NCBI GenBank assembly: GCA_963696385.1
Contig: CAVOKF010000004.1
Coordinates: 992,001-1,056,000, forward strand
Direction: 5' to 3'
From: an uncultured delta proteobacterium
Lineage (GTDB): Bacteria > Myxococcota_A > Polyangia > Polyangiales > Polyangiaceae
Length of the DNA stretch: 64,000 bases
Shown here: positions 20,935-51,320 of the stretch, one piece after another
Layout: each line of letters begins with the position of its first letter
Position numbering within the stretch: position 1 is the stretch's first letter
Translations under genes and position numbers: made by a program
The notes under the pieces: generated by a model
Told to the model about the DNA's origin: nothing
Database searches by the model: none
The model's input: the letters and a program-made list of their open reading frames with translations, nothing else

Positions 20935-20992
20935 AGTCCAGCGGACTACCCGCTCCCTTCGGTCGTCTTCCACGGAGCCACCCCGAGCCGGT

Positions 20993-21401
20993 GTGCGTGC
21001 ACGCACGCCCGCACGTGCGGGCCGTTCGATCGCACGTTCGCCCGACGCAGATTTCCCGGTGTTTTTGCGAGATCGACCGATCGGAACGATTGGCCCCGAC
21101 CTTGCGATAGCCGTGCCTCGAAGGCGCGAACGGCGCCGGGAGGACAGTCATGCGAAAAGCGTTGGTCTTTGTGGGGATAACGGCGATGGGTTTGGGGGGG
21201 TGCGCCACGACGTTGCGAGCTCCCGTGCCGCCGATTCATTCGGACGCCGAGGCCGGAGCCGGCTCCCCGGCAGGGTTTGGATGCACCGTCGAAGGGGCGC
21301 CCCGCGTCGTGGCAAACCAGGTCGATCGCTCCGCCGGCGTCGTCGCCGAAGCCGATGACTCGCGTGTGTGGCTGCACTTCTCGATGGATCGTGGCGCGAA
21401 G
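20993..21401 (+). repeat. Copy 1 of a ~410-bp diverged duplication (promoter plus lipoprotein 5' end)
   Basis: Aligns by eye with 25418-25819. Confidence 0.9.
21091..21106 (+). promoter_or_regulatory. sigma54 promoter of the lipoprotein gene
   Basis: TGGCCC-CGACC-TTGCG. Confidence 0.6.
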
Positions 21402-22004
21402 CCTCGGGCTCTGGCGGTCGATCCGCTGTCGCTCGACGCGGCGGAGGGCGGCGAGTCCTCGTTGCCCGGTCTCGCGAACGCCGGCACCCGCGCGGAGGGT
21501 CTCGCCGCCGAGATCACGCCGGTGCGCTGGCAATCGACGGGCCCGTGGGCCGCCGACACGGGTCACGTTCGTCCCGCCGTCGCGCAGGTCCACGAGGCAT
21601 CCACGTTGCACGCGTTGCAGCTGCGGCTTCGGAGCGCGCTGTCGGCCGCCCCGGTTTCGTCGATGTCCGGCGATGCTCGGGCCACCCATCCGGTCGTCGC
21701 CCGCTTGGACTCGGAGAGCTCGGCGGCGGTGTGGAGCGAAGGGTCGATTTACAGGGGTCTCGACGTTCATGTCCAAAGGATGGACCGGCACGGCCGCCCG
21801 ATCGGATCTCCGGTGACGCTGGCGACCGACGGCCGCGCCTTCGGCACGCCGACGGTGGCCGTCGGCCCCTCCGGTCGGGGCGTCGTCGCGTTTTTGCAGG
21901 AGACCGACCAAGGCTTCGATCTCGCCGCCGCGTCCATTGATTGCCATGTCTCCGCGTCGCGCGACGCGCCGGCCGAATGGGCCATGCAGACGGCGCGCCG
22001 ATAA
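21150..22004 (+). CDS. Lipoprotein of unknown function
   Basis: GGGAGG RBS, lipobox LGGC. Confidence 0.75.
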   Translation: MRKALVFVGITAMGLGGCATTLRAPVPPIHSDAEAGAGSPAGFGCTVEGAPRVVANQVDRSAGVVAEADDSRVWLHFSMDRGAKPRALAVDPLSLDAAEGGESSLPGLANAGTRAEGLAAEITPVRWQSTGPWAADTGHVRPAVAQVHEASTLHALQLRLRSALSAAPVSSMSGDARATHPVVARLDSESSAAVWSEGSIYRGLDVHVQRMDRHGRPIGSPVTLATDGRAFGTPTVAVGPSGRGVVAFLQETDQGFDLAAASIDCHVSASRDAPAEWAMQTARR

Positions 22005-25060: not shown

Positions 25061-25417
25061 GGGACGCGAGGGGCAAGACGGGGAGCCATGGCCGCCGTGG
25101 ATGACCTGCCATGGAGCGGGCGCGGGGATCTTGCTCCTTCAATCCTAGCTCACCCGCGATTCTCGTTGGCGCTCGTTGCGCGCTCGGACGGCCGCTTTCC
25201 GGGGCCCCCGGTCGCAGCCCGGAGTCGCTCGGAATGGGCGGCTCCAACGAGGCAGCACGTAGTTTCGGCGACGGTCGGCGGGCGTCGCCTTCAGCGGTTT
25301 CGACGTCGAGATTTCGGCAGGCACCCTCGCCGTCTCCTAGTTTCGGCGTCGCGATCTCGGCAGGCACCCTCGCCGTGGCGGGCCGAATGGCCACGAGGGC
25401 AAGACACCGGGCCCGGC

Positions 25418-25819
25418 GTGCGTGCACGCACGCCCGCACGTGCGAGCCGTTCGATCGCACGGTTGCCCGACGCAGATTTCCCGGTGTTTCCGCGCGATCG
25501 ACGGACCGGAGCGATTGGCCCCGACCTTGAGATGGCCGTCCTCGAAGGCGCGAACGGCGCCGGGAGGACAATCATGGGAAAAGCCTTGGTCTTTGTGGGG
25601 ACAACCGCGATGGGTTTGGGGGGTGCGCCACCGCCTTGCGAGTTCCCGCGCCGCCCGTTCATCCGGACGCCGAGGCCGGCTTCGCGGCGGGGTTTGGATG
25701 CACGGTAGAAGAAGCGCCGCGCATCGTGGCCCACCGGGTCGATCGCTCCGCCGGACTCGTCGCCGAAGCCGACGACTCGCGCGTGTGGCTGCACTTCTCG
25801 ATGGATCGTGGCGCGAAGC
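25418..25819 (+). pseudogene. Copy 2 of the duplication: frameshifted lipoprotein truncated at the IS
   Basis: MGKALVFVGTTAMGLGG at 25574; homology to copy 1 ends at 25819. Confidence 0.85.
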
Positions 25820-25939
25820 AAATTGACTCTGAACCGGTGGCGTGGGCAAGGGTTTTCGCGCAGAGAGTTTTCTTTTTTTCGTTTCGGAGTGAGCTGGGTT
25901 CTTAGAATTCAATGGACGTTTCCCTTCTCGGCGCTTGAG

Positions 25940-26190
25940 GGCGCCGGAGCACGGTGACAGTAAGGGGAGCGCTCCGAACGCGCGGCTTGGCGAGCTACCT
26001 CTCGATTGACTCTTCACGTGCATCGGGCAGCGAAGTTCGCGTCCAAGGCCCGAGACGTAGATTTGGATTCGAAGCGGTGGAACGAGACGCAATTTTTCGC
26101 ACGAAGTACAGTCACGTCTCCACCGGAGCGGAGATCGCAAGAGCTTCTACCAATTTGTCGCGTTCAACGTTCCTCCAGATGGGGTGCTCT
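25940..26190 (-). ncRNA. Candidate bridge/seek RNA of the IS1111 element (boundaries approximate)
   Basis: Stem GAGACGTG/TACGTCTC encloses GCGAAAAAT and CCAAAT (target-matching); a second loop has AGAGTCAAT, identical to the element end. Confidence 0.7.
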
Positions 26191-26232
26191 TAGGCTACGC
26201 GCTCAAGGCGCATCGGAGACGGTCGTGACGAT

Positions 26233-27384
26233 TCATGTCATGGCGACGTCCTCCGAAATCTTGTTGCGGCGAGGAGCCCGCCGTTGGAGTTTCTTGGCGG
26301 AGCGTTCGAGCGCCTCCGCATTCGCGTTTTTCGAACGAGCCTCTCTGCGAGTGCCCTTTGCGCTCGCCTTGGCCTGTCCCACCGGATCGTAAGCGGTGCC
26401 GTCGCGCCACATCGCCCAGAGGACGCCGGCGAGTTTTCGTGCGATGGCGATGGCGGCGATTCTCTTGCCTCGCGTCTTGGCGATGCGGTCGCCCCACTGG
26501 CGAATCGGGTCGTCCATGTCGCGTGACCTGAGGATGAGCCACGCCGCTTGGACGAGCATTTTTCTCGCATACGTGTTGCCCTGCTTGGTGATCGAGCCCA
26601 GGCGCCGCTTTTCAGGTCCGCCTGTCGTCAACTCCGACGGCACCAAACCAAGGTACGCTCCGACTGCCTGCGCATTGCGAAAGCGCTTCGCCTCGTCGAT
26701 CACCGAAACGAAGGTGGACGCCACGATAAGGCCGACGCCAGGAGCGGTGGCGAGAAGTTTCGTGATGGGCTCACGCATCGCCATCTCCGAAAGCGTCCGT
26801 TCGACCTGGGTGAGCTCTTCTTCGACTCCGACGAGCACGGCAAGGAGCGGCGCGATGAGCGTGCTCGTCGCGTCGTCGAGCGAGCTCTCGCGAACCTTGT
26901 TCACAAAGTTCTCGGTTGTGCATGTGGGAAGGAGCACGCCTGCCGCGCGCCCGAGCCCGCGTATCGTCGTCACATACTGCGCACGTGTTTCGACCAGCGC
27001 GCCGCGCACGCTCAACTGCGCGCGCAGGGCTCGGCGGGCGGGAGACAGAATGTGCGCCTCGGGGATCCGTCCTTGGTCTACGGCACGTGCGGCCGCCTCA
27101 GCATCGAGAGCATCGTTTTTGCGCTTGTGATGCGCGACGCCCATCGCACGCACCCGCGTCGTATCGATCATCTTCGCATCGTGCCCCCACGACGTGAGGG
27201 TATCGTGCACGTGCCATCCTTCACGCGACGCATCAAACGCAATCCGCGCAGGTGGACAGTCGGGGCCGATTCGCGACTTGAGTTGGTCCAGCCTCTTCAC
27301 AGAGGTCCGATCGATGACCTCTCCGTTCCGTATCTCGCAATACGCAATGTGGCGCGCTCCAAGATCCAATCCTATGCTCCGCAT
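26233..27384 (-). CDS. IS110-family transposase/recombinase
   Basis: IGLDLG, KNDALDA, PGVG, YLGLVP, ITKQGN, AIARKLA. Confidence 0.95.
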   Translation of the reverse strand: MRSIGLDLGARHIAYCEIRNGEVIDRTSVKRLDQLKSRIGPDCPPARIAFDASREGWHVHDTLTSWGHDAKMIDTTRVRAMGVAHHKRKNDALDAEAAARAVDQGRIPEAHILSPARRALRAQLSVRGALVETRAQYVTTIRGLGRAAGVLLPTCTTENFVNKVRESSLDDATSTLIAPLLAVLVGVEEELTQVERTLSEMAMREPITKLLATAPGVGLIVASTFVSVIDEAKRFRNAQAVGAYLGLVPSELTTGGPEKRRLGSITKQGNTYARKMLVQAAWLILRSRDMDDPIRQWGDRIAKTRGKRIAAIAIARKLAGVLWAMWRDGTAYDPVGQAKASAKGTRREARSKNANAEALERSAKKLQRRAPRRNKISEDVAMT

Positions 27385-27599
27385 GATCGATCTCCCTTCG
27401 GCCCCCACTTCGCTTTGTGCCTTTGAGCACGCCGGGGTGTCGGATGGATAATCCAGCGGGAGGTCGGTCGCTATTTTCGATGACCGACGACCGGCACGGG
27501 GGCTGCTCTCGAGACGCCCCGCGATCGATCTCGAGGCTGCGGCACCCGTGCCGCGCGGCGTGCCTGGCGGTCCAGGACGCGCCGCCACCGGTTCATCTA

Positions 27600-27705
27600 A
27601 TCTTTCGCCGATTCAGTGATAACGAACGCCCCTAAGACGCGATATGTTTCCGCGCCCGCTTCCGCGGCTCTTCGTTGACCGATACCCTTTCGACTGGCTA
27701 CTCGC
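27600..27705 (-). repeat. ~110-bp repeat, copy A (inverted, interrupted by IS1111)
   Basis: Reverse complement is near-identical to 31129-31236. Confidence 0.9.
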
Positions 27706-27719
27706 TCGGGGGCAGGAAC

Positions 27720-28718
27720 ATGCTCGGACATACTCGTCTCGCCGGGTTTACTCTCTGTAGCGTTGGCATCCTGGCCTGCGGCACCCATTCGGGTACCCGC
27801 GATGCGGGCGCGGCTTGCCAGACCGTCGGACCTCCTCCGACGTCGCAGCTCCCACACGTAACCGTCTCCGGCGCGACTGCGATGGCGATTCTGCAGGCCC
27901 TGGACGCGATATGCGCGTCGCAGACGCCGCCAGTATCGCCGGGCGCGGCCTATTCGCTTCCGAGCCTCGATTGCAGCGATATTGCCGTGCCCGGAGACTC
28001 CGGGTTCGAGTGTCTGCTCGCGCTTGGAGCCGACGGTGGCTCGCAGATTGACGTGAGCGACATCACGGCATCCGCCGCGGGGGCCACGGACGCGGGCGAG
28101 GACACCGACGCGGGCGGAACCATGCTCGCGCAGAACCTGTTCAATGCGCTCGCGGCGACGGTGTCCATGCCCTGCGTCGATCCGCATGGCGTGCATGTGC
28201 AGCTTCAGAACGTGTCGGTGACCGCAAGTGGAATCCAGTTCGACGACGCCTCGAACTACGCAACCTTTGAGGCGCCGAATATTCAGGTTCGCGGGCCTGA
28301 CGCGCAAAGTCTCATCAGCGCGTTCGCCGCCGCGGGGCTCGACGACTGCGACCCGACGCGCAACCTCTTCATCGTCTGCAATACCCAGGGCGGCGCTCCG
28401 GGCTGCGGTCACGAATGGATGACCCTTGCGACCGTGGGCGCGTCCATATTGGAGCCGGCCTGCGGTCCGGGCGGGGGCACGCAGGCCGAACCGCCGTTTG
28501 ATGCCCCGACGTCGCTCGCGATCTGGAACGCCATCATAAAGGCCGCCTCCGACGCCGGGTTTCAGCCGATGAACGGCACTATCGCGCAAACCACCGTCAT
28601 CAACGCCGACTATTTTACGTGGGACGGCACGACCCTGGCCTTCTTGCTCGTTGCCGACGACCCCACTCTGCCGCCCTCGCCCCCGGGCTTCGCCAGCGAC
28701 GGCGGCGCGGACGAATAG
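27720..28718 (+). CDS. Cys-rich lipoprotein of unknown function
   Basis: AGGA RBS, lipobox ILAC, DAG linkers. Confidence 0.75.
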   Translation: MLGHTRLAGFTLCSVGILACGTHSGTRDAGAACQTVGPPPTSQLPHVTVSGATAMAILQALDAICASQTPPVSPGAAYSLPSLDCSDIAVPGDSGFECLLALGADGGSQIDVSDITASAAGATDAGEDTDAGGTMLAQNLFNALAATVSMPCVDPHGVHVQLQNVSVTASGIQFDDASNYATFEAPNIQVRGPDAQSLISAFAAAGLDDCDPTRNLFIVCNTQGGAPGCGHEWMTLATVGASILEPACGPGGGTQAEPPFDAPTSLAIWNAIIKAASDAGFQPMNGTIAQTTVINADYFTWDGTTLAFLLVADDPTLPPSPPGFASDGGADE

Positions 28719-28827
28719 CGACCGCCAGCACGTGCGATGAAATTCACATCGCGACGAGCGCGGCTCCGGTACAGGCCATAGGGATCACGAGGAGGGGTTG
28801 CGAGTCCATTATAGATATACAACTAGC

Positions 28828-29299
28828 CCCAACCCGACAATGTTGAGGCGAGTCTAACTGACAAAAGAAGACTGGAAGGGCGGTTTCGTGCGTGCTTTGT
28901 TTCGAGTTGCGAGAAACGAAACGTCACGACGAAAGGCCACTTCCAGTGCGGATAGGAAAGCGCGGCTTTGAGGCTCGGGTCAAGGGCGACTTGACCCTCC
29001 GTTTCGGACACGAGAGGCTCACGTCGCACGCGGGACTGGAGTTGGTCCGCCGGTTTCTTGCAAAGGGTCGGCTTGTTCGGCGCCCTTCGCGAGAGCGAGG
29101 GCAAACTCGCCGTGGGCGGGGACTTCTCCTTCGGTAGGTGGTGCTCGCGGTGGTGGCGATGCTGCTCGTCGGCGCGAAGCGACTGAGACACCTGGCCTTC
29201 CTCGGCAGCGACCCGCTCTTTTTGCGATTCGCCGGTATGTCGCGAGCTCCGACGGAGCGTTCCCTCGGTCGAGCGTTGACGAGGATGGGATGGCGCACG
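28828..29299 (+). mobile_element. IS1380-family remnant (left end plus frameshifted transposase 5' part)
   Basis: LRFGHERLTSHAGLELVRRF, then LLVGAKRLRHLAFLGSDPL; cut at repeat D. Confidence 0.65.
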
Positions 29300-29420
29300 G
29301 CGAATAGGTGAAGCAAAGCCTGGCGGACGACGAAGAGCCGCGGAAACCACCGCGGTCCCATATAACGCCTTTGGGGCGAGTCCGTTGTCACTGCAACAGC
29401 GAACCGATTTGGCTACTCGC
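29300..29420 (+). repeat. ~110-bp repeat, copy D
   Basis: Differs from copy E by one base up to GATTTG; ends in CTACTCGC, the inverse of the left motif. Confidence 0.9.
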
Positions 29421-29479
29421 CAGCGCTCTTGGGCGAATAACAGCCCCGTTCCTATGCGAACAACGCCCGCCTTTGTCCC

Positions 29480-30673
29480 TCACTGGTTGCCTGCGGCCAG
29501 CGCCGCGATTTCAGCACCGGACAGAGCTCGTGAATACCACCGGATTTCGTCCAGGTCCCCAGCGAAGTACGTATCATCATACGCAGCTCGGGACGCATTG
29601 TGGGCAAAGCACAGCGAGCCGTTGTTGTTTGAGATGTCCCCCGACGCTACTTGAGAGGCATCAAAAAGCCCGTCAATGTAGATGTTCTCGTTGGCGCCGT
29701 CGTAAGTTGCGGCAACATAGTGCCAGGTATTGAATGACAACGCAGTGGCGGAGATGAGGTTGGCTCCTGGACTCGTCAACTCAAACAAGTAAAAGACAAT
29801 TTTGCCGTTGGCGTTGATCCCTGTGAACTTATCTTCAAGCCCGTTGACCCACTTATTAATGAGGATTGTATTATCAGCAGAGGGGGCTGCCGGGATGTTG
29901 ATCCAGAACGCGATCGTGTAACCGGCCGCCAGGTTCAGCGTGGTGGACGTGGGTATCAAGACGTCCCCGGTCGTGCCGTTGAATGAGAACGCTTGCCCGA
30001 ATTTCCCGGTCACGAACGTGACGCCTCCATCGCCACCCTGGAGGGTCCCATTGTTCGGGCCCACGCTGTCGTTCGCGTTCCCTTCGCCATGCCACAAGCT
30101 GACGAGGCCCTGGGTCAGGGTATCGGCGTCGGCTGCATCCCCGTCCCCGGCTTCGCTATCTGGCTCCTCGATGACGTCCGGGTATGGTGCACAACAATCG
30201 AGTGCATCCGGCTCGACGTCCGGTACCGTCCCGTCCTCAGCGTCTGGTTCTGCGTCCTGTACCGTCCCATCCTTGGCGTCTGGTTCCGCGTCCGCTTCCA
30301 CGTCTGGTTGAGCGTCCGAGACAGTTGCATCCTTGCCCCCGTCCCCGGCGTCCAGTTCACTCGAGGACGAGCTTGAAGTGCTCGTCGAGCTTGAACTCGA
30401 ACCATCGGATGCGTCCGGCTCGGATCCGTCAGACGCGTCGACGGATCCGTCGGACGCGTCCGTGCCCGCGTCCAATTCACTCGAAGACGAGCTTGAAGTG
30501 CTCGACGATGTTGAGCTCGAGGATGGTTCGCTTGAGCTTGAAGAGCTCTCGGGGGAAGCGTCGGACGGCCCCGTCGAAGAGCTTCCACAAGCGGACAGAG
30601 CCGCAAAATGTCCGGTTACGACCGCAAATGCGCCGATTCTGAACCACTCTCGCTTCAAGACATACCTCCGCAT
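29480..30673 (-). CDS. Lipoprotein with Ser/Asp-rich repeat linker and C-terminal LamG/concanavalin-like domain
   Basis: LSAC lipobox; GLVSLWHGEGNAND, WHYVAATYDG..IYIDG, FAGDLDEIRWYSRALS. Confidence 0.88.
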   Translation of the reverse strand: MRRYVLKREWFRIGAFAVVTGHFAALSACGSSSTGPSDASPESSSSSSEPSSSSTSSSTSSSSSSELDAGTDASDGSVDASDGSEPDASDGSSSSSTSTSSSSSSELDAGDGGKDATVSDAQPDVEADAEPDAKDGTVQDAEPDAEDGTVPDVEPDALDCCAPYPDVIEEPDSEAGDGDAADADTLTQGLVSLWHGEGNANDSVGPNNGTLQGGDGGVTFVTGKFGQAFSFNGTTGDVLIPTSTTLNLAAGYTIAFWINIPAAPSADNTILINKWVNGLEDKFTGINANGKIVFYLFELTSPGANLISATALSFNTWHYVAATYDGANENIYIDGLFDASQVASGDISNNNGSLCFAHNASRAAYDDTYFAGDLDEIRWYSRALSGAEIAALAAGNQ

Positions 30674-30956
30674 TCATCGACGTGGAGAGCCGACAGTGGT
30701 GCCAAGAGGCGCACAAAGTGGACCAAGCTCGAGTGGCACGCGCTGCAACAAAAAGTTCAACAGGCTCGGATAAATCATGCCAACTCAGCTTTGACACGGT
30801 CTGGGAGAGGATCTGGAAGAGCTCCTAATGTGGCACGCGAAGCTACATGTGGCGCATGGCGCTACTTTGTGGCTTCGCGTACCACACACGTAGGTGGCGC
30901 GGCAGTGTCCGGTCTCAGGTGCTTGATCGGCTCCCTCCGCGCCTGTACTTCGGGCA

Positions 30957-31162
30957 TGAACCCGTTTCGTGCGCTTCCCGACGACGCCCCGGCCACCATC
31001 CCCGCGCCACCGCCGTCCGAGGCTCTGTGCAGCCATTCTGGACCGATCGCCTCGATCCGGACTTGCGTGGTCTGCGGCAAGCCCATCAAGGGCCGCGCGG
31101 AAAAACGGTCGTGCTCTGGCCGTTGCCGGCGAGTAGCCAGTCGAAAGGGTATCGGTCAATGA
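30957..31162 (+). CDS. Small Zn-ribbon protein, 3' end overlapped by repeat B
   Basis: CVVCGKPI..KRSCSGRCR. Confidence 0.45.
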
Positions 31163-31236
31163 AGAGCCGCGGAAGCCACCGCGGAAACATATCGCGTCTT
31201 AGGGGCTTCCGTTGTCACCGAGCGGCGAAAGATTTG
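31129..31236 (+). repeat. ~110-bp repeat, copy B
   Basis: GCGAGTAG...CCGCGGAAGCCACCGCGG...CATAT-CGCGTC-TTAGGGGC...GCGAAAGATTTG. Confidence 0.9.
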
Positions 31237-31301
31237 GCCAGCCCGGGACGCGAACGCGCGGGCGCTTGATCTTTCCCTCAACGGGTCCGATGCTAGCCGC
31301 C

Positions 31302-31502
31302 ATGACTGGCAGCCCAGTTCCGTCGTATGAGCACGAGGACTCACCCGAGGTGGCGGCCCTGCGTAAGCGCATCCGTGGCGAGCCGCTCTCAGCGGCGGAA
31401 GACGCCCTCCTCGCGTCCGCGACGCGCAAGCCGTCCGGGCCCGGTGTACTGCACGCCGAGGTGATGGCCGAGCTCGCCGAGCGCGAACGCCGCGGCGAAT
31501 GA
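31302..31502 (+). CDS. Putative antitoxin
   Basis: 66 aa, ATGA-coupled to the following RelE-like ORF. Confidence 0.5.
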   Translation: MTGSPVPSYEHEDSPEVAALRKRIRGEPLSAAEDALLASATRKPSGPGVLHAEVMAELAERERRGE

Positions 31503-31717
31503 TTGTAGTTTGGGACGAGTCCGCCCTCGAGAGCTGGCGCCGCTTGTCGCTGAGCGATGCGAGGGCGGTCGCCGAGGCTGTCGAGCGATGGGCGCAGACG
31601 GGACAGGGTCTCGTCGTAGCCGTCGACGGGGAGTTCCAGCTCTTCGTCGGTCAACACGTCGTCGTGATGCTCGTGGCCCGCGATACGCTCTACATCGACC
31701 GCGTGCGCCGGGCTTAG
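31499..31717 (+). CDS. Putative RelE/ParE-like toxin
   Basis: MIVVWDESALESWRRL...FQLFVGQHVVV...LYIDRV resembles the RelE pattern. Confidence 0.55.
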   Translation: MIVVWDESALESWRRLSLSDARAVAEAVERWAQTGQGLVVAVDGEFQLFVGQHVVVMLVARDTLYIDRVRRA

Positions 31718-31901
31718 GCCCTCAGCAGCTCCGGGGGAGCCCTGCCGCCATCCGCCGGAAGCAGTATCGGCTTCGTGAATGGTCAGTCGGCGTGTCTCAG
31801 CGCGTCCAACTTCCGCTCGGAGGCTCGCGCCGAATCGCGTTGATCAGTCGCCCGGCGAGGCGAAACGGGCGGCCCGAGCTGCTGCCCATTACGCTTGAAG
31901 G

Positions 31902-33059
31902 ATGTGGTGCGAGCGATCCGCGCGGCGGTGCCCATGGCGCGCGGTTCGTGCAGGAGGCATCGCCGTCCTCTTGGCACTCGTTGCCTTGGCTGTTTCCGGC
32001 GCGGTCTACAACTGGTTGGCAGTTCGACATCTTCGCAGCATCTACCCGCCTCCGGGCAAGCTCTACGCCGTGAACGGCAAGGCGATGCATCTGTATTGCA
32101 CCGGCGAGGGAGCTCCAACGGTCGTCCTCGAAGCAGGCATGGGCAATGACTCGCTCATTTGGGTGAAGGTGCAGCCTCCCCTCTCCAAGACCACCCTAGT
32201 ACCTCGATTCCGCGGAATGGAAGGGTCGTTTTCCGCGATATTCCCGACGGGATCGGGTGGTCTCACCCCTCCGTTTCATGGAATCGGGGTACTAGTTTGC
32301 TCGTACGACCGCATCGGCGTTGGCTGGAGCGAAGCGCAAGACGGAGGACACGACTCCAACAGCGTCGCCGATCGACTGCATGTTCTTCTATCGGAGGCAG
32401 AAGTTCGAGGATCGATCGTGTTGATGGGGCACTCCATCGGCGGAATTCACATCCGATCTTACGCCTTCCGCTTTCCTCGCGAGGTAGCGGGGTTGGTCCT
32501 CGTTGACTCTCCCACGCCGCTTGAAGTGACGAACGTTTCCGCTGAGGTTCGAGCGCTCCGCCACGACGCCGACAGGGACATCTCGATGAGAAAGTGGCGA
32601 ACTGCGCTGGGTATGGCACGCCTGATGGGCGAGTGCTCGCGGGTGCAGTCGGGGTTCGAGCCCTATACCGATTGGGTCAAGGCGGATAGCTGTATTCCGT
32701 CGCAGTTCGACGCCCTCTTGGCGGAGGCTTCGGCAAGCGAAGCGTCCGGACAGGAGACTCTCGGCACGGGTCCATTCGGGGATCTGCCCGTCCTTGTCGT
32801 CTCGTCGGACCTGACCGTATCGCCCCCGGGTTCGCCTTTTTCAGCCGAAGTCCTTCAGCGAATGGCCACTGTCCGGAACGCGGGACAGGAAGACCTCAAG
32901 AAGCTATCGACACGCAGCCGCCGCATCATCGCGAAAGGCAGCGGTCACTACGTCCAGATCGATCGGGCGGACCTGCTGAACCGCGAGGTGCCGGTCTTCA
33001 TCGACGAGATCCGTACCCATGCGATGCCATCCAAGAACGGCACGACGGAGACAGAGTGA
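31902..33059 (+). CDS. Alpha/beta hydrolase with an in-frame 32-codon MITE insertion
   Basis: PTVVLEAG, VCSYDR, GHSIGG, SGHYVQ. Confidence 0.9.
   Translation: MWCERSARRCPWRAVRAGGIAVLLALVALAVSGAVYNWLAVRHLRSIYPPPGKLYAVNGKAMHLYCTGEGAPTVVLEAGMGNDSLIWVKVQPPLSKTTLVPRFRGMEGSFSAIFPTGSGGLTPPFHGIGVLVCSYDRIGVGWSEAQDGGHDSNSVADRLHVLLSEAEVRGSIVLMGHSIGGIHIRSYAFRFPREVAGLVLVDSPTPLEVTNVSAEVRALRHDADRDISMRKWRTALGMARLMGECSRVQSGFEPYTDWVKADSCIPSQFDALLAEASASEASGQETLGTGPFGDLPVLVVSSDLTVSPPGSPFSAEVLQRMATVRNAGQEDLKKLSTRSRRIIAKGSGHYVQIDRADLLNREVPVFIDEIRTHAMPSKNGTTETE
32200..32291. mobile_element. 92-bp MITE with ~27-bp imperfect TIRs and CTAG target duplication
   Basis: CTAG at 32196-99 and 32292-95; left end TACCTCGATTCCGCGGAATGGAAGGGT versus reverse-complemented right end TACCCCGATTCCATGAAACGGAGGGGT. 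Confidence 0.85.
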
Positions 33060-33189
33060 CCAGAAATCGGGTCTTCCCGCTCTGCCTCGACAGACCTTCG
33101 TGACGGGCCTTCGTTTTCAGTGAAGCGCCGTCTGCTCGGCGCGGTCTCGGCATTTTCGGCTAGGCTTTGCTCACGAAGGGGAAAGCCAA

Positions 33190-33328
33190 ATCGGATTCTG
33201 AACCGGTGGCCGTGGCAGAGAGTTTTCTTTTCTTCGTTTCGGAGTGGGCTGGGTTCTTGGAATTCAATGGCCGTACCCCTTCTCGGCGCTTTGTCGCGTT
33301 CAACGTTCCTCCAGATGGGGTGCTCTTG
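33190..33328 (-). mobile_element. Remnant right end of a second IS1111-type element
   Basis: Homologous to 25828-25937 joined directly to 26154-26190; same TGAACCGGTGGC IR. Confidence 0.8.
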
Positions 33329-33391
33329 GACTATAGACTAGCCCTGGGAAGGCGGACGACCGCTCTCACGCTTTAACTCCCGTAATCCTAG

Positions 33392-33696
33392 CCCTACTTT
33401 CGCAAAATCGCGACGCGGAGCGAGGCATTGCCGTCACGGGAGGCTTACGTTTGCGGCGTTTTCTCTTTCCATCGCTAGCGACACGGGATAGTGGAAAGAA
33501 ATGCACTTCACGGAGAAGGTCGTCAATGGCAACCGTTACCGCATCGCTGCGCAAGCGGTCTGGGACGCGGCCGCCGGGCAGTCGTATTCTCGGCAGCTTG
33601 GACCGGCGGAGATGCCCGTGAGCGTGAAGCTCGCACAGCTGCGGACGGTGGGCCGACGTCCTATCGGCGACGTTGGGGCTCTGGTCTGGGTGGCGG
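33392..33696 (+). mobile_element. IS1634-like remnant (left end plus transposase N-terminus)
   Basis: MHFTEKVVNGNRYRIAAQAVWD...GDVGALVWVA; cut at repeat C. Confidence 0.55.
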
Positions 33697-33807
33697 GCGA
33701 GTAGTAAGCCCAAAGCACGTCGGTCGACGAAGAGCCCGCGGAAGCCACCGCGGAAACATATCGCGTCTTAGGGGCGTTCGTTATCGCTGAATCGGCGAAC
33801 CGATTTG
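33697..33807 (+). repeat. ~110-bp repeat, copy C
   Basis: Same conserved blocks as copies A and B. Confidence 0.9.
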
Positions 33808-33839
33808 AGCTCGCCGCGGAGACCGAGGCGGATTAGACT

Positions 33840-34085
33840 TTGATCACGATGCAACCGCTCAAGGCCCGCGTGCACAACGGACGTCTCGTGCTCGATGAGC
33901 CTACCGAGTTGCCCGAGGGTGAGATTGTCGAGCTCGTGCCGCGCGAGCCCACGCTCGACGACGAGTTTGACGACGAAGAGCGCGCGCAGCTCCGCCAGGA
34001 GCTCGACGAGGGCATCAAGCAGATGAAGGCCGGCCAGACGATCGACGTGGCCGAAGCGATGGCCGAGTTACGCGCTCACCGATGA
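33840..34085 (+). CDS. Putative antitoxin
   Basis: LKARVHNGRLVLDEPTELPEG; ATGA-coupled to the toxin. Confidence 0.65.
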   Translation: MITMQPLKARVHNGRLVLDEPTELPEGEIVELVPREPTLDDEFDDEERAQLRQELDEGIKQMKAGQTIDVAEAMAELRAHR

Positions 34086-34393
34086 GGCTGCGCCTCGTCC
34101 GGCGCGCACTCGCGGACGCCAAGCGCAGGAAGACCTGGTGGCAGCGTAACCGGCCTGACGCCACCCACCTCTTCGAGCAGGAGCTCGGGGCAACTCTCGA
34201 ACGCATCGCCGCGTCGCCCGGAATCGGACAGCGAGTCGAGCAGCGTGACGGAGACGTCTGGGTGCGCCGGTGGCTGATGCCGAAAACGCACAACCACGTC
34301 TACTACGCGATCGAGGGGACCGAGATCGTCGTGCTCGCCATCTGGGGGGCCCCGAGGGGCCGCGGACCCAAGCTGTGGCTCTCGATCGAGTGA
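34082..34393 (+). CDS. RelE/ParE-family toxin
   Basis: IAASPGIG...HVYYAI...IVVLAIW. Confidence 0.8.
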   Translation: MRLRLVRRALADAKRRKTWWQRNRPDATHLFEQELGATLERIAASPGIGQRVEQRDGDVWVRRWLMPKTHNHVYYAIEGTEIVVLAIWGAPRGRGPKLWLSIE

Positions 34394-34419
34394 TTTCGGT
34401 CGGCCACGTGCTGCGCGAG

Positions 34420-34712
34420 GGGAGATCCGTGATTTCGATCGCCTGACTCTCGTTACCTCGCTTACACACCGCGACGTTGCGGTTGTCGCCGCGATGTTCA
34501 ATCGCCTCGACGGCAACGCGCACGCCAAGCACCTGAGTCTCGAACGGCAGATCGAGATGGTTCTCGAACATCGTGAACCGGCCCATGACCTGTTCGGACT
34601 CGTCGTGCGCGTCGACCGTCGCCTCCTCGATCATCTCGGCGAGCCTCGCCGCACTGATCCCGCTCCGCGTTTTGCGAGCCTTCGCGTTCTTCCTCGTCTT
34701 GCCCATCGTCAT
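34420..34712 (-). pseudogene. 'Calcium-binding' family hypothetical protein, 3'-truncated
   Basis: MIEEATVDAHDESEQ..LPFETQVLGV..ITDLP, then the similarity stops. Confidence 0.6.
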
Positions 34713-35308
34713 CACGGCACCCACTCCGCGAGGTCGTCGTCCCGATCCGTCGCCGATTCGTGATCCAGCGCGCGGAGCACATCCTCGTCGTACTCGATGA
34801 TCAGGTCGTCCTTCGGCTCGGCGTAGCCGAGCGGGGCCTCGCCGCGCGCGTAGCCGATCGCGCGGTACCCCCGGAGCCGTTTCTCGAACATTCGGAGGAG
34901 CATCGGCACCTCGCGATCGACATAGTCAAAGATGCGGACCTCGCGCTTGCCCGGATGGAGCCGATGCAGCCGTCCCGTGTACTGCACGAGCGTGCCCTTC
35001 CACGAGACGGGGAGCGCGAGGAAGAGCGTGTCGAGCCGCGCGTCGTCGAAGCCTTCGCCGATGTAGCGCCCGGTCGCGAGCAGGAGGCGCTCCTCGTTCG
35101 GCGGAATCGCCTCGAGCCGCGCGCGCACCTCGCGATCCGCTTTCGCGCCCATGCCGCCTTGGAGCACGACGAGATTCCGTGCCACGCGCTCGAGGCGGCT
35201 CGCGAAGTACTCGATGTGGTCCTTGCGCTCCGTGAGGAGGATCGGCGAGCGCCCTTCCTCGAGCGCGCGCACCACGTCGTTCAGGATCATCGCATTCCGC
35301 GATTCGTC
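34712..35308 (-). pseudogene. C-terminal fragment of an SF2 (DEAD/DEAH-like) helicase
   Basis: LATGRYIGEGFDDARLDTLFL, QYTGRLHR, IFDYVD; 5' part cut at repeat E. Confidence 0.85.
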
Positions 35309-35420
35309 GCGAATAGGTAAAGCAAAGCCTGGCGGACGACGAAGAGCCGCGGAAACCACCGCGGTCCCATATAACGCCTTTGGGGCGAGTCCGTTGTCAC
35401 TGCAACAGCGAACCGATTTG
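35309..35420 (+). repeat. ~110-bp repeat, copy E
   Basis: Near-identical to copy D. Confidence 0.9.
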
Positions 35421-35588
35421 AACACATCCAAAGCACACGTCGCCCGTCGACGCTCTGGCCGCGTTCCGCCAGTTCCGGCAAAGCCTCCCGCGCCTCGCGC
35501 TCCGTCCACTGTTCCCAGGGCCCAGGTACGTCAAAACGCCCTCCCGTTGGCAACCATCTCCGACCCGCATCTGGCGTATCGTACCCCG

Positions 35589-36236
35589 ATGATTCGAGTC
35601 CTCCTCGTCTGCGGGAGCCTCCAGCGAACCTCGACGAACCGCGCCGCGCTCGACGTCGCCCGCGTGGCGCTGTCGGCGCATGGCGTCGAGGTGAGCGCGT
35701 TCGAAGGTGTCGGGTCGATTCCACCGCTGAATTCCGATCGCGACGACGACCCTGGCGATGCAGTGCAGGCCTTTCGCGCTCAGATCCGGGCCGTCGACGC
35801 CGTGCTGATCGCCGCGCCCGAGTATGCCGGCGCGATCGCCGGCGTGATGAAGAACGCGCTCGACTGGATCGTGGGCTCCGGCGATCTTTACGGCAAGCCG
35901 GTGGCGCTCCTCAGCGCAGGTACGAGCGGCGGCGCCTTCGCCCGGAGGGACCTCATGCGGACGCTGAGTTGGCAGGGCGCGCACGTGGTCGCGAGCCTCG
36001 GCATTGACGCAGCCAGCTCGAGGTCGGTGACCGACGCCAACGGGATGCGCCGGTTTACGGATCCGACGGCCCTCAACGACATCGGACAACTGGTGTCGTC
36101 TCTCCTGGCGTCGGTTGCCAAGAAACCTTCCGATCGGTTCGCCGATATCACTCGGCTCGCGCGCGACGCAGGCATCGAGCAAGGCCCTCTGGCCGACCAC
36201 ATTGCCGCGCAGGACGAAGCCTGGCTCCGGCGTTGA
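35589..36236 (+). CDS. NADPH-dependent FMN reductase
   Basis: CGSLQRTSTN, APEYAG...MKNALDW. Confidence 0.92.
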   Translation: MIRVLLVCGSLQRTSTNRAALDVARVALSAHGVEVSAFEGVGSIPPLNSDRDDDPGDAVQAFRAQIRAVDAVLIAAPEYAGAIAGVMKNALDWIVGSGDLYGKPVALLSAGTSGGAFARRDLMRTLSWQGAHVVASLGIDAASSRSVTDANGMRRFTDPTALNDIGQLVSSLLASVAKKPSDRFADITRLARDAGIEQGPLADHIAAQDEAWLRR

Positions 36237-36552
36237 TTTTGCGGCGTACGAGCCGACCCGCCGAACTGGCCCACCTCCCGCCGGTCCATGATGCGCGTTC
36301 GCTCCGATGGCCCCAAGCCGCGCGCGCAACCCTTCCGCGTCGCATAACCAGATGCCGACCGCGACCTGACCCCGACCTCGACGCTTGAGATTGTTCGTTC
36401 AACTGCCGCGACTTGCACACGAGCTCTTCGCGACGGCCGATCGATACACCGACCGGCTTCGCGTGGAGCGTCGTTCCAATCGCGGCCAGCGTCGCCACCG
36501 CGATCGTGCTCGCGCGCACATGGGGTAGCGAAATGCTCTTCAATGGGTCAAT

Positions 36553-36828
36553 ATGACCTTTATGCGAAAGACCTCCGTCGCGAACGCCAAAGCCCACTTT
36601 TCCGAGCTCGTCGACCTCGCTGAACACAAGGGGCAACGCATATTGATTCTTCGTCATGGCAAGCTTGCAGCAGCCATCGTCCCGGTGAACGTTGCGATGG
36701 GAAATCGTCCGCGCCTGAGCCTCGATGCGTTCGACACGCTGATCGATCGCATGACCGCGGAGGGGCCCGAGACCGCGATGACGATCGAGGAGGCGCTCGG
36801 GCGCGATCGACTCGACGGGATCGGCTAA
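36553..36828 (+). CDS. Phd/YefM antitoxin
   Basis: SVANAKAHFSELVD...ILRHGKLAA. Confidence 0.9.
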   Translation: MTFMRKTSVANAKAHFSELVDLAEHKGQRILILRHGKLAAAIVPVNVAMGNRPRLSLDAFDTLIDRMTAEGPETAMTIEEALGRDRLDGIG

Positions 36829-37232
36829 TGCGGCTCGTGCTCGACGCTAGCGTTGCCGTCGCGTCGCTTCGGCCGCATGAGCCGGATTACCGCGCCGCTC
36901 GAGCCCGTTTGCGCAGGATAGCGAACGGTGACGATCTCGCTGTCGTTCCGTCGATCTTCGTAACGGAGGTTGCAGGAGCGCTGGCGCGACTCGGGTTCGA
37001 GAGGGCGGCCATCGACGCATTCGTCGCAGCGCTCACGAGCACGCCGCACGAAGTGATGACGATCGGGCCAAAGCGCGCGCTCGCAGCAGCCGGCATCGCG
37101 GTATGTACGAAGCTTCGTGGAGCGGACGCGATGTACGTGTGGCTCGCGGCTCGCGAAGGGGTCCCGCTATGCACGCTGGATCGTGAAATGCTCGCGCGGA
37201 GTGCAGCTATTTGCGAGGCGATCGTTCCCTGA
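36828..37232 (+). CDS. vapC: VapC/PIN toxin
   Basis: VLDASV, EV, LRGADAMY, TLD. Confidence 0.9.
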   Translation: MRLVLDASVAVASLRPHEPDYRAARARLRRIANGDDLAVVPSIFVTEVAGALARLGFERAAIDAFVAALTSTPHEVMTIGPKRALAAAGIAVCTKLRGADAMYVWLAAREGVPLCTLDREMLARSAAICEAIVP

Positions 37233-37251
37233 GAGAAACTGTTGGCGCCCC

Positions 37252-37782
37252 ATGACCGGAGACGATATCGCTGTGCTGCTAGGTTTCCTTGCGGGCGCCA
37301 TTGCCCTGGCTGGATTCGCTGGAATCGTCACGTCCATCGACCGAGGGGCAGCCGTTGCCTCCAACGAGGTCATCTCGTTTCGGGTGCGCAACCTCGTCAC
37401 TTCCGCGGTGGCGCAGGTCTTTCTGTCCCTGCTGCCAGTCCTGCTCGAAGCGCTGGAGCTATTTCGGTCCAGCCTCTGGCAGTGGTGCTGTGTCGTCTCC
37501 GCCCTCGGCATCAGCGCACTCCTCTTCTCGTTGCTGTCGGCGCGGCTCCGGATGAGGGGCGGCAAGGACGCCGGACTGTCGCATTCTCTGTTTGCCGCCA
37601 ACATGACGTTCGGCGCGCTCGCGCTCGGTGTACTGATCGCCGGTGCGTCCGGAGCCGTTGCCGGGCGGGGCGCCTACTTCACGGGGCTCTGTTACCTGAT
37701 GTACCTCATGTGCACGTTGTTCCATCGTATGGTCGCCATGGCCGACGCCGCCGCAAGCCATGCGGCGAAAAGGAAGCCGTGA
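37252..37782 (+). CDS. Multi-pass membrane protein
   Basis: About 5 hydrophobic segments. Confidence 0.7.
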   Translation: MTGDDIAVLLGFLAGAIALAGFAGIVTSIDRGAAVASNEVISFRVRNLVTSAVAQVFLSLLPVLLEALELFRSSLWQWCCVVSALGISALLFSLLSARLRMRGGKDAGLSHSLFAANMTFGALALGVLIAGASGAVAGRGAYFTGLCYLMYLMCTLFHRMVAMADAAASHAAKRKP

Positions 37783-37852
37783 CCCTAGAGTCGCGAGCGT
37801 TCGGCCACGCTGATGTTCCCGAATGACCCGAGGGTCATCCAGGTGAGCGCTT

Positions 37853-37900
37853 CAAATCGGTTCGCCGTCCAGTGACAAGGGACGCCCCAAAGGGATCTTA
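37853..37900 (-). repeat. Partial inverted repeat, copy F (similarity ends at the 6-bp spacer)
   Basis: CAAATCGGTTCGCC..CAGTGACAAGG-GACGCCCCAAA-GGGATC-TTAG. Confidence 0.75.
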
Positions 37901-37988
37901 GCGTCGACCCACATCTTGCTCTCCGACGCGATCGCGGGCGGGCTGACGACGCGCGCGTTCAGGGCGTGAGTGATGCGGGGATGCGACG

Positions 37989-38899
37989 TCAGAGGCCTTC
38001 TTTCGCCACGTACTCGCGCACCGTGGTTGGCCGAATGGTGGGGTAGCGGTCGTTCATGAGCCCCCCGAGCTGCCCCTCGCCGCTCATGATCGAACGGAGG
38101 TAGGTGAGCGGTAGGTATGCGATGAGGTTGTGCGGGTTCGCTTCGCGGATCGCCGCGATGCGCGCGCTGAGGTCATCAACGGACCCGAGCCGCTCGATCT
38201 TGAGCTTCTTGTCCGAGCCCGCTTCGTACTCGGCGACCAGTTGGTCGAAGTCGAGGATGCAGCCCGCAACGTACAGTTTGCGCGGCACCGGGCGCTCGTC
38301 GGTTGCGGCTTCGGCTGTGTAGCGTGCGGTGTCCGCGTACGTGGTCCAGGCCATCGGCGCCTTCCCGTCGCCCCAGACGTAGGCGGTCTGCTTCTCCGCA
38401 TCGATGACACGGATGAAGCCGAACAGCACGCCGCGATCCATGAAGCCACCGTTGAGCACGTGGACCACCTCCACGTCGCCGCGCTTCTTTTCCTCGAGCA
38501 GCGCAAACTGGCGGCGCATCTCGGAGGTAAGGATGTTTCCGGGCTTCACGTCGAAGAGGTCGAGCGAGTAGTCGGAGGGGATGAAGCGGTGCACGCCCGC
38601 GTCGCGTGCTGCGCTCACCAGGCGTCGCTGCCCTCGACGATGACGTCGGGGCCACCCTGCACCGCCGAGACGAGGGCGAAGCCCCCCTTGCAGAGCGCGG
38701 CGAGGGCTGCGCCGTCTTCGGCTCCGAGCCCGCCCTCGACGACCTCCGCGCCACGCTGCTCGAGCCCTCCGACCTTCGCGCGACTCCCAGCGCGAACGAG
38801 GAGCCGGAGCTGCACGTCGGGCTTGTCGAGCAGCGCGTTGGCGATGAGGGCTCCGAGGTGGCCGGTGCCGCCTACGAGCGCGATGAGCTTCTTGGTCAT
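37989..38899 (-). pseudogene. NmrA-family protein with a 1-bp frameshift near 38625
   Basis: LVGGTGHLG in one frame; RFIPSDY in the next. Confidence 0.85.
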
Positions 38900-50775: not shown

Positions 50776-51255
50776 ATGAAGGGCGACCCACGCATCATCG
50801 ATTTGCTCAACGAGATCCTCACCGGAGAGCTGACGGCGATCAACCAGTACTTTCTGCACGGCAAAATGTGCCTCAATTGGGGTTACCAGCATCTGGGCAA
50901 GAAGATTTACGAGGAGTCCATCGACGAGATGAAGCACGCGAACAAGCTCGTGGAGCGGGTCCTCTTCCTCGACGGTCTGCCGAACCTGCAGAAGCTCGAC
51001 AGGCTGAACATCGGTCAGACGGTCATCGAAATCCTGAAGAACGATCTCACGTTCGAGCTGGGTACCGTGCCGCGCCTCAACAAGGGCATTCAGCTTTGCC
51101 GCGACGTGGGCGACAACGGGAGCGAGCACCTTTTAACCGGCATTCTGGTGGACTCGGAGGGACACGTCGACTGGCTCGAGTCGCAGCTCGAGCTCGTGAA
51201 GCAGGCGGGCGAGGCCCAGTATCTTGCCCAGCAGATTCGCGAATCGTCCTCCTGA
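50776..51255 (+). CDS. bfr: Bacterioferritin
   Basis: MKGD, ELTAINQYFLH, ESIDEMKHA (haem Met). Confidence 0.96.
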   Translation: MKGDPRIIDLLNEILTGELTAINQYFLHGKMCLNWGYQHLGKKIYEESIDEMKHANKLVERVLFLDGLPNLQKLDRLNIGQTVIEILKNDLTFELGTVPRLNKGIQLCRDVGDNGSEHLLTGILVDSEGHVDWLESQLELVKQAGEAQYLAQQIRESSS

Positions 51256-51320
51256 ACACGAGACCCTGAACACGAGACCCTGAACACGAGACCCTGAACA
51301 CGAGACCCTGAACACGAGAC
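51251..51320 (+). repeat. Five perfect tandem copies of CCTGAACACGAGAC
   Basis: Direct reading. Confidence 0.97.

Follow-up and report, generated by a model that had tools for sequence, protein, structure and literature searches.

A repeated unit of 110 bp was studied in the window, the whole 64,000-nt stretch of DNA analysed here, which has its own numbering and comes from a myxobacterial genome of 6.9 Mb (G000, contigs C2-C7). It was found that this repeat is almost certainly the terminal 110 bp, on the oriIS side, of an HUH transposon of the IS91/ISCR type. Because each repeat carries a look-alike of the host dif site, the data suggest that the transposon borrows the recombination enzymes of its host to reshuffle the DNA it has cut. 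In the reading that we favour, to which a probability of roughly 0.6 is given, the unit is a non-autonomous ISCR-like end module: units would be placed by the transposase, and copies would be resolved by host XerC and XerD.

ISCR elements spread resistance genes, and their ends and the completion of a transposition round are still unclear. Here, about 100 natural junctions define both cut points to the base, and the embedded site tracks the host dif across species. Should Xer act on this site, the resolution of chromosome dimers and rolling-circle transposition would be coupled in a way that was not found described; indeed, no description of a dif-like site inside an IS91/ISCR end was found in the openly accessible literature searched. 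If Xer does not act, the unit would be a transposon scar of a familiar type that holds a curious relic. The substrate is 110 bp long, and both halves of the proposal are testable in a laboratory strain.

The unit, its transposase and its junctions

Five full copies were located in the window with a repeat profile that was seeded with them and rebuilt from 33 full-length matches. They are unit A (27598..27705, minus strand, with the oriIS end at 27705) and, on the plus strand, units B (29300..29411), C (31129..31236), D (33697..33807) and E (35309..35420), with profile E values of 3e-24 to 8e-32. A right half, unit F (inner half, 37853..37900, minus strand), was matched at E = 6e-4. A preliminary description of this DNA had listed the same five copies and half copy, all of which the profile placed where it had put them. 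The end remnant that it added near 33185 proved to be only the six terminal unit bases (GATTTG, 33187-33192, minus strand), coreless and fused to the right end of an IS110 element (together 33187..33291, minus strand). It had also proposed a genome-wide profile search, which returned 106 matches at E<=0.05: 48 full copies, 19 left halves, 18 right halves and 21 other fragments. The family thus extends genome-wide beyond the window, and its copies cluster: when the 87 copies at E<1e-5 were considered, 47 of the 79 gaps between neighbours were shorter than 6 kb, compared with a random expectation of 6.3 on average and 18 at most in 1000 draws. These 47 close neighbours were direct in 27 cases and inverted in 20. 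Units B and E are 99% identical.

The flank that recurs at the inner end was identified as the 3' end of a gene reading toward the repeat. Its product contains the domains Y2_Tnp (PF04986) and Zn_Tnp_IS91 (PF14319) and is 37% identical to the transposase of ISCR1 over 404 aa; the closest titled transposase relative, from the Polyangiaceae (L020), is 92% identical, and the best NCBIfam matches were ISCR clade Ia and IS91, both under their cut-offs. The genome holds four Y2_Tnp loci, none of them in this window, and at all four the gene ends 174-177 bp from the outer end of a unit. In full elements the inner motif GATTTG lies about 65 bp beyond the stop codon of the transposase. The anatomy of the unit and its link to the transposase are thereby established. 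Both ends are conserved in relatives: the outer end reads G(C/G)G(A/G)GTAG(G)AAG, and the inner motif (TTG, then A(C/G)CA..TCCAA(A/G)GC) stands between ori and gene in many of them. Solo units ending sharply at TG|purine were observed in G004, G005, G044, G060, G079, G087 and G094, with at least seven solo copies ending at the TG of the inner motif in G004. The repeat itself was found by nucleotide search of 41 relatives only in G003, with one further weak match; a transposase query reached further, to 20 of 31 and 77 of 301 genomes.

No terIS was evident: upstream of the gene, the similarity between copies is lost at varying positions, all within a few hundred bases. The lack of an evident terIS is usual for ISCR. 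At 232 bp past its annotated gene, ISCR1 reads GGGTATAGGAAG inward, resembling the outer end of the family, and the oriIS region of ISCR1 is given as 232 bp (PMC6218425). For IS91, oriIS is described as the right end, at which transposition starts, with frequent failure of termination and no target duplication (PMC13181058). Boundaries are called unclear for some ISCR elements in one account, which states that no rolling-circle mechanism has been demonstrated for them (PMC9376610).

The family belongs to the IS91/ISCR superfamily in the wide sense, and is neither IS91 proper, nor a pdif module array, nor an IMEX. As in ISCR (ISCR1, ISCR2/ISVsa3) and the IS91 family, there is a Y2 HUH transposase with a zinc domain, an ori end 3' of the gene with a similar terminal motif, neither terminal inverted repeats nor a target duplication, and no clear terIS upstream. 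Unlike ISCR, the family has a dif-like site in its ori region (none is evident by eye in the 232 bp of ISCR1) and an internal stop at a constant position between ori and gene; its solo ends outnumber transposase genes by about 25 to 1, and its target is loose. IS91 proper (IS91, IS801, IS1294) differs by its target tetranucleotide and by a terIS upstream, in place of which a stop-like point lies downstream here. A single-stranded circular intermediate with a ter-ori junction, as expected of IS91/ISCR elements, is hinted at by metagenome contigs of runs X1 and X10 that join a right arm to an ori start, though such joints may equally stem from a chromosomal tandem or a graph artefact.

The two unit ends behave as junctions. 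Among 70 copies, 67 different flanks were found at the outer end GCGA(G/A)TAG, and among 63 copies, 61 at the inner end GATTTG. The base outside the outer end was a purine in 63 of 67 cases and that after the inner end in 58 of 61, and the inner flank began mostly with GC or AG (41/63); this junction rule is plain from the copies themselves. Homologues of the flanks elsewhere run on without the repeat, so that the unit ends are seen to cut genes. The cargo junctions lie at these two ends, about 50 and 30 bp from the core and outside its spacer. At the unit termini no inverted repeats, no target duplication and no common flank sequence beyond the purine were detected. Of the 41 units with both ends, 20 were testable for an empty site, as one of their flanks has an intact homologue, and none rebuilt an intact site from its own flanks; nor did any convincing one emerge when the 67 x 61 flank pairs were all tried. 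In G003 the same outer flank and unit are followed by a different inner flank, and two copies of G000 likewise share the outer flank and differ in the inner one. Since empty sites are missing and inner flanks differ behind a shared outer flank, a flank-replacing step presumably follows or accompanies insertion.

That the repeat might instead be a miniature inverted-repeat transposable element of a DDE transposon, or a structured non-coding RNA, would suit its shortness, its dispersal and its roughly 100 copies, but is hardly conceivable: its ends are not inverted repeats, neither duplications nor empty sites accompany it, it folds no better than shuffles, and the transposase link contradicts it. 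An Rfam covariance scan of 20000-45000 gave no match in the repeats and one chance match elsewhere.

IS801 offers a closer parallel, as it yields ori-side miniatures of 229, 360 and 679 nt by internal termination (Bardaji et al. 2011, PMC3189936). Like the units here, these are ori-side fragments ending at an internal stop and mobile with the transposase in trans. As described there, they were recovered by trapping, from a single target gene, and few are found in genomes (PMC3189936); unlike them, one fixed length has been amplified about 100-fold here, with a recombination-site mimic and with 0/20 simple empty sites.

The junctions and the four transposase loci also bear on the preliminary reading of the repeat as a stand-alone tyrosine-recombinase cassette system. 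This reading is not supported, since the repeat is the oriIS end of an IS91/ISCR element at 4/4 transposases and the junctions fall at unit ends. A match to a known insertion sequence end had been named beforehand as speaking against it, and in kind such a match was found.

Beside these, two units that point toward one another were observed at C4:1140055-1140303 of G000; between them lie 32 bp of a gene that is intact elsewhere. A large serine recombinase element lies within, or replaces part of, the IS91 transposase gene at L011 (C7:1399585-1401399) and at C2:127503-129317; the gene upstream of it presumably resembles one for a conjugative coupling protein. A serine resolvase beside one copy had raised the reading of a Tn3-type res site, which was rejected, as the resolvase belongs to this large element.

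The dif-like core and the host dif

The preliminary description had read the middle of the unit as an 11-6-11 site with conserved arms and a variable spacer; the core indeed reads as quoted there, and its likeness to dif is now backed by a matrix. In unit A the site (27625..27652, plus strand) consists of a XerC arm, the spacer GACGCG and a XerD arm. The same spacer is present in C (31182..31209) and D (33751..33778), and GGCGTT in B (29353..29380) and E (35362..35389), all four on the minus strand. Unit F retains the TAA, the spacer GATCCC, the XerC arm and the inner end.

A short dif-type pattern was used to find the host site. One strong site outside the repeats, C3:50570-50596, was obtained and taken as the presumptive dif; the contigs could not be ordered, their ends overlapping by way of multi-copy repeats and several of them showing weak GC skew, so that neither this site nor the repeat clusters were positioned relative to the terminus. 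A pattern derived from the presumptive dif had matches in 11 of the 31 genomes of the genus (nine with one site, two with two), and its reversed control matched none of the 31. The XerD-side arm is identical in 10 of the 11 presumptive dif sites inspected, and the spacer varies. A matrix was then made from nine sites of other genomes, with the own site and that of G003 excluded and two taken from the unpublished G010 and G042, on which the bit scores thus depend in part. It ranked C3:50570-50596 first genome-wide at 38.8 bits. Eleven of the 19 sites of at least 15 bits in the genome, and 41 of the 98 of at least 8 bits, lay inside the repeats, which cover 0.22% of it. The comparison with the host dif that the preliminary description had proposed gave a resemblance, copies A and D matching the presumptive XerC arm at 10/11. 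Judged by its sequence, the core truly mimics the presumptive dif of its host. When 8 element sites were set against 6 presumptive host sites, the XerC arm agreed over its inner 8 bp best or tied with its own host in 8/8 (G004 and G008 share these 8 bp). Element spacers match the spacer of their own host at only 0-2 of 6 positions. The presumptive dif is intact, and the nearest repeat copy on its contig (E<=0.05) is about 430 kb away.

The likeness extends to other transposons. In a sample of 77 non-redundant transposase 3' regions, a dif-like site of at least 6 bits was present in 16 on the gene strand versus 2 on the other strand, and one of at least 15 bits in 9 versus 0. Five of the 16 scoring regions are of the own lineage, and 11 belong to transposases 37-67% alike (best segment), in which the site recurs at the same place. 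A different palindrome, never together with the dif type, was found at about the same place in 17 of the 77. A quick tree drawn from 40 of the 77 proteins requires five changes of the dif label, at least three of them forced by strong branches, and unites the palindrome type in one group of nine. In a second family of the order, five of five genomes hold sites of their own dif type; G094 has 17, of which 16 share one common spacer, and the sites inspected belong to units of this type. Two variants were noted besides: the palindrome subclade is of the TGTCAC...GTGACA type (L035, L166, L146, L149, L128, L117 and others, with an 11-6-11 arrangement in L035 and L166), and L107 (G060) has an element-borne dif-like site with a 7-bp spacer.

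Candidate host enzymes are a XerC-like protein at C3:320327-321247 and a XerD-like protein at C3:185760-186692, with XerC and XerD as best matches slightly under the cut-offs; 32 tyrosine-recombinase matches were counted in the genome. The co-occurrence of such a recombinase with the family, raised in the preliminary description, was not borne out: a XerC/D query, which did match three other loci, found none beside the transposase at 77 loci within the fetched flanks of 1.5-3 kb.

The A/T-rich conserved bases could alternatively form an outward promoter as in ISCR1, or binding sites for the transposase, the dif likeness arising by chance. Outward promoters are reported in the oriIS region of ISCR1 (PMC6218425), and an intact open reading frame (ORF) starts 14 bp outside the ori end of A. 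This explanation is nevertheless very improbable, as two sigma-70-type sites were found in 27400-38000 (1.6 expected) and none in any unit, and as it leaves the enrichment of sites in the repeats and the host tracking without an account.

Proposed Xer action and competing explanations

The transferred strand would carry, in order, the oriIS end GCGA(G/A)TAG, a hairpin, the dif-like site and the internal stop GATTTG. In a first step, by a chemistry modelled on IS91, the Y2 HUH transposase, supplied in trans from the four loci, would nick at ori, and the strand would be joined to a loosely chosen target (a purine, then GC or AG). Transfer would either read on into the transposase and neighbouring DNA or stop at GATTTG, leaving solo units. 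Read-through, again by analogy with IS91, could capture cargo, of which segment 31237-32060 with its copy on C6 may be an example. In a second step a new and an older copy would recombine, one flank being replaced and the intervening DNA deleted, circularised or moved, and units might lack simple empty sites because of this exchange. In Tn3, a res site serves resolution; the dif-like site here would by analogy be kept so that host XerC/XerD carry out or assist resolution between copies with the same spacer. Recombination with the chromosomal dif, whose spacer differs, would not occur, homologous exchange outside the core would also take place, and IS4 and IS110 elements would then use the unit as a landing pad.

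On the sequences compared, Xer proteins probably act on the dif-like site. More tentatively, and with somewhat less than even confidence, the widespread myxobacterial ISCR clade may be a two-enzyme system in which the HUH transposase plants host-matched Xer sites near-randomly and XerC/D excise, invert and re-integrate the DNA between them. If true, it would be a self-seeding dif-module system and a third exploitation of Xer besides plasmid pdif arrays and IMEX, and could explain by what route ISCR-type elements that lack terIS resolve their products, as well as the origin of arrays of dif-like sites.

Secondary insertions into the core were demonstrated for an IS4-family element: 15 of its 31 ends directly adjoin a core, and its 10-bp duplication has the spacer at its centre. 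Most half-copies stop either next to an IS4 end or where IS4 cuts; copy F and at least two further right halves begin at this cut position or 1 base from it. Half-copies are therefore weak evidence for Xer, because IS4 targeting of cores largely explains them. Copy F had been described as a product of crossover in the spacer; it keeps the TAA of the XerD arm, and its break falls at the edge of the 10-bp IS4 duplication, so that it is no clean sign of a Xer crossover. Elements of the IS1202 family, also of the DDE type, similarly home on dif-like sites, inserting 5 bp outside the XerC arm (PMC10132070), unlike the spacer-centred duplication here. IS110 elements use the other end of the unit: all six left ends in the genome follow GGCGAAAGATT of the unit, at the inner GATT.

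Several irregular cores and joins were seen alongside. The 10-bp IS4 duplication stands in tandem with 1-2 extra bases in the cores at C4:46443-46563, C2:103537, C2:74011, C4:81333, C6:60044, C7:1383982 and L074, and one core lacks 10 bp (C5:731703); from their sequences, such altered cores look like excision footprints repaired by end joining. At C5:40110 and 41582 of G000 the IS4 target lies outside the list of repeat matches and is also dif-like. Five left halves (C6:48184, C6:58617, C7:94376, C2:119447, C2:75332) join one foreign sequence exactly at the border of XerD arm and spacer. Another sequence interrupts units at position 90 (C6:111860, C7:1356928, C2:75943; L067, L070, L081, L082); read on the opposite strand, it seems to resemble a group II intron at its 3' end and may be a third unit-targeting element.

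A number of observations weigh against our reading. Among 46 unit haplotypes, three four-gamete rectangles were left of the core and three across it, and none was localised to the arm/spacer borders. The window cores score modestly, at 9.2 bits in A and D and 9.3 bits in C, and those of B and E, at 3.0 bits, compare with 3.2 bits for the 99th percentile of shuffled units. The commonest unit type has a decayed XerD arm (6/11 to the host), and 61 of the 77 relatives score below 6 bits, the site being dispensable or diverged in most. The host dif sites are themselves presumptive, each being a single site without transposon context, and G008 has two candidates. The target rule found, purine^(GC/AG/GT/AA), contains no IS91-style tetranucleotide, and seven repeat strands folded no more stably than their shuffled versions (z -1.4 to +0.1). 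The host tracking by the XerC arm over its inner 8 bp is a pattern and not a test, the 8-bp window having been picked after inspection of the data and the genomes being kin; for the whole 11-bp XerC arm the own host was best or tied in 7/8, and the XerD arm does not track its own host.

The main rival holds that the units are IS91/ISCR end miniatures with a non-recombining dif-like site, either a relic or bound by Xer for regulation or protection, flanks being exchanged between the roughly 100 near-identical copies through RecA, through gene conversion or by a switch of template. It would fit the equal recombination signals outside and across the core, the decay of the XerD arm in the most abundant type and the many relatives without a scoring site, and IS801 fragments are argued to be mainly homology patches by Bardaji et al. 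(PMC3189936). We consider it unlikely, as the XerC arm tracks the host at the single-base level, both among three species within a genus and in another family, as the spacer is free while inner arm bases are conserved across units, and as another 11-6-11-like palindrome occupies this position in one subclade, the two types never occurring together.

A Xer cassette system like the pdif modules of Acinetobacter, with the flanking 80 bp as accessory-protein sites and an incidental IS91 link, could draw on the true dif likeness, on the toxin-antitoxin cargo and on two junctions. Unit C7:1361153 switches parent within the first two spacer bases, at the XerD-arm/spacer border. Among the metagenome contigs from four studies that cover the region, one X10 contig joins the left flank of B to the right flank of E (29310-35320), which is a hint, as X10 also holds pieces of the skipped segment. 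Such a system is highly unlikely even so: 4/4 transposases carry the unit as their 3' end, junctions fall at unit ends and cut genes, orientation does not alternate, and half-copies lie mostly at IS4 ends or the IS4 cut position. Under the favoured end-module reading, too, Xer activity is a proposal and no finding: modules do not alternate in the manner of pdif modules, arms also recombine outside the spacer and half-copies are largely due to IS4.

In Acinetobacter, pdif modules have to alternate, and their recombination takes place between spacers that are identical or almost so (PMC13141974). They share with the units 11-6-11 sites, varied spacers, toxin-antitoxin cargo and the attraction of other insertion sequences (PMC13141974). 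In contrast to them, the sites here are embedded in a transposon end with cargo boundaries outside the site, C/D modules do not alternate (27 direct, 20 inverted), and the contigs are long and genomic. An integron cassette array is likewise unlike the present arrangement, in which cargo is cut mid-gene and orientation is mixed. IMEX such as CTXphi and TLCphi are rolling-circle HUH elements with a dif mimic that use host XerC/D and integrate at the chromosomal dif; here, by contrast, an intact presumptive dif stands without any unit next to it, and its spacer differs. The CR2-sul2 unit, moved by the GIsul2 integrase with an att site upstream of the gene (PMC9376610), is also an ISCR-type unit tied to a tyrosine-recombinase site. 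There, as described, the island integrase reads att, whereas the site here lies in the ori end and mimics dif.

Cargo and other features of the window

The inner end of unit A is interrupted at its GATT by an IS110-family element (25825..27598, minus strand; extent from multi-copy comparison), whose transposase ORF (26233-27588) was matched to IS110 by Pfam and NCBIfam. The cargo ORF 14 bp outside the ori end of A (27720..28718, plus strand) had no Pfam match. An 8-bp ori stub of another unit (29413..29420, minus strand) is severed by the inner end of B, and a LamG-domain protein, also cargo, was identified by domain search at 29480..30673 (minus strand).

The ori end of unit C severs a gene that continues intact in G003. 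The cargo segment that follows C (31237..32060, plus strand) has a 99.6% copy at C6:107857-108680, which ends at a new ori junction within the hydrolase gene; the C6 copy is also IS4-flanked, and its route is uncertain. The segment contains a small gene pair (31302-31717) without a Pfam or NCBIfam match and the start of an alpha/beta hydrolase gene (31902..33059, plus strand). The latter bears, near 32181-32293, a miniature insertion of about 113 bp with inverted ends, of which at least 17 copies exist in the genome and which is missing from X1 and X7 contigs.

The left end of a multi-copy insertion sequence (33388..33696, plus strand), intact at four other places, is severed by the ori end of D. 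Behind D, a RelN/ParD-like antitoxin and a ParE-like toxin were identified as cargo by domain searches (33849..34393, plus strand), and this toxin-antitoxin pair is confirmed. A C-terminal helicase fragment (34712..35308, minus strand; weak Helicase_C match, E 0.009) is severed by the ori end of E, and E is followed by about 25 bp resembling the native continuation on the transposase side. An FMN reductase, a Phd antitoxin, a PIN toxin and an ORF of unknown family make up the cargo at 35589..37782 (plus strand). The hydrolase, the FMN reductase and the Phd-PIN pair had been named correctly in the preliminary description; the toxin-antitoxin pair assigned to 31302-31717 was not confirmed, and the pairing of E and F as inward-facing partners is weakened by their different spacers and by the loss of most of the XerD arm in F.

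Elsewhere in the window, a duplication of about 400 bp was observed at 20988-21402 and 25413-25819, with a spacing of about 4420 bp, and a 14-bp tandem repeat lies at 51251-51320.

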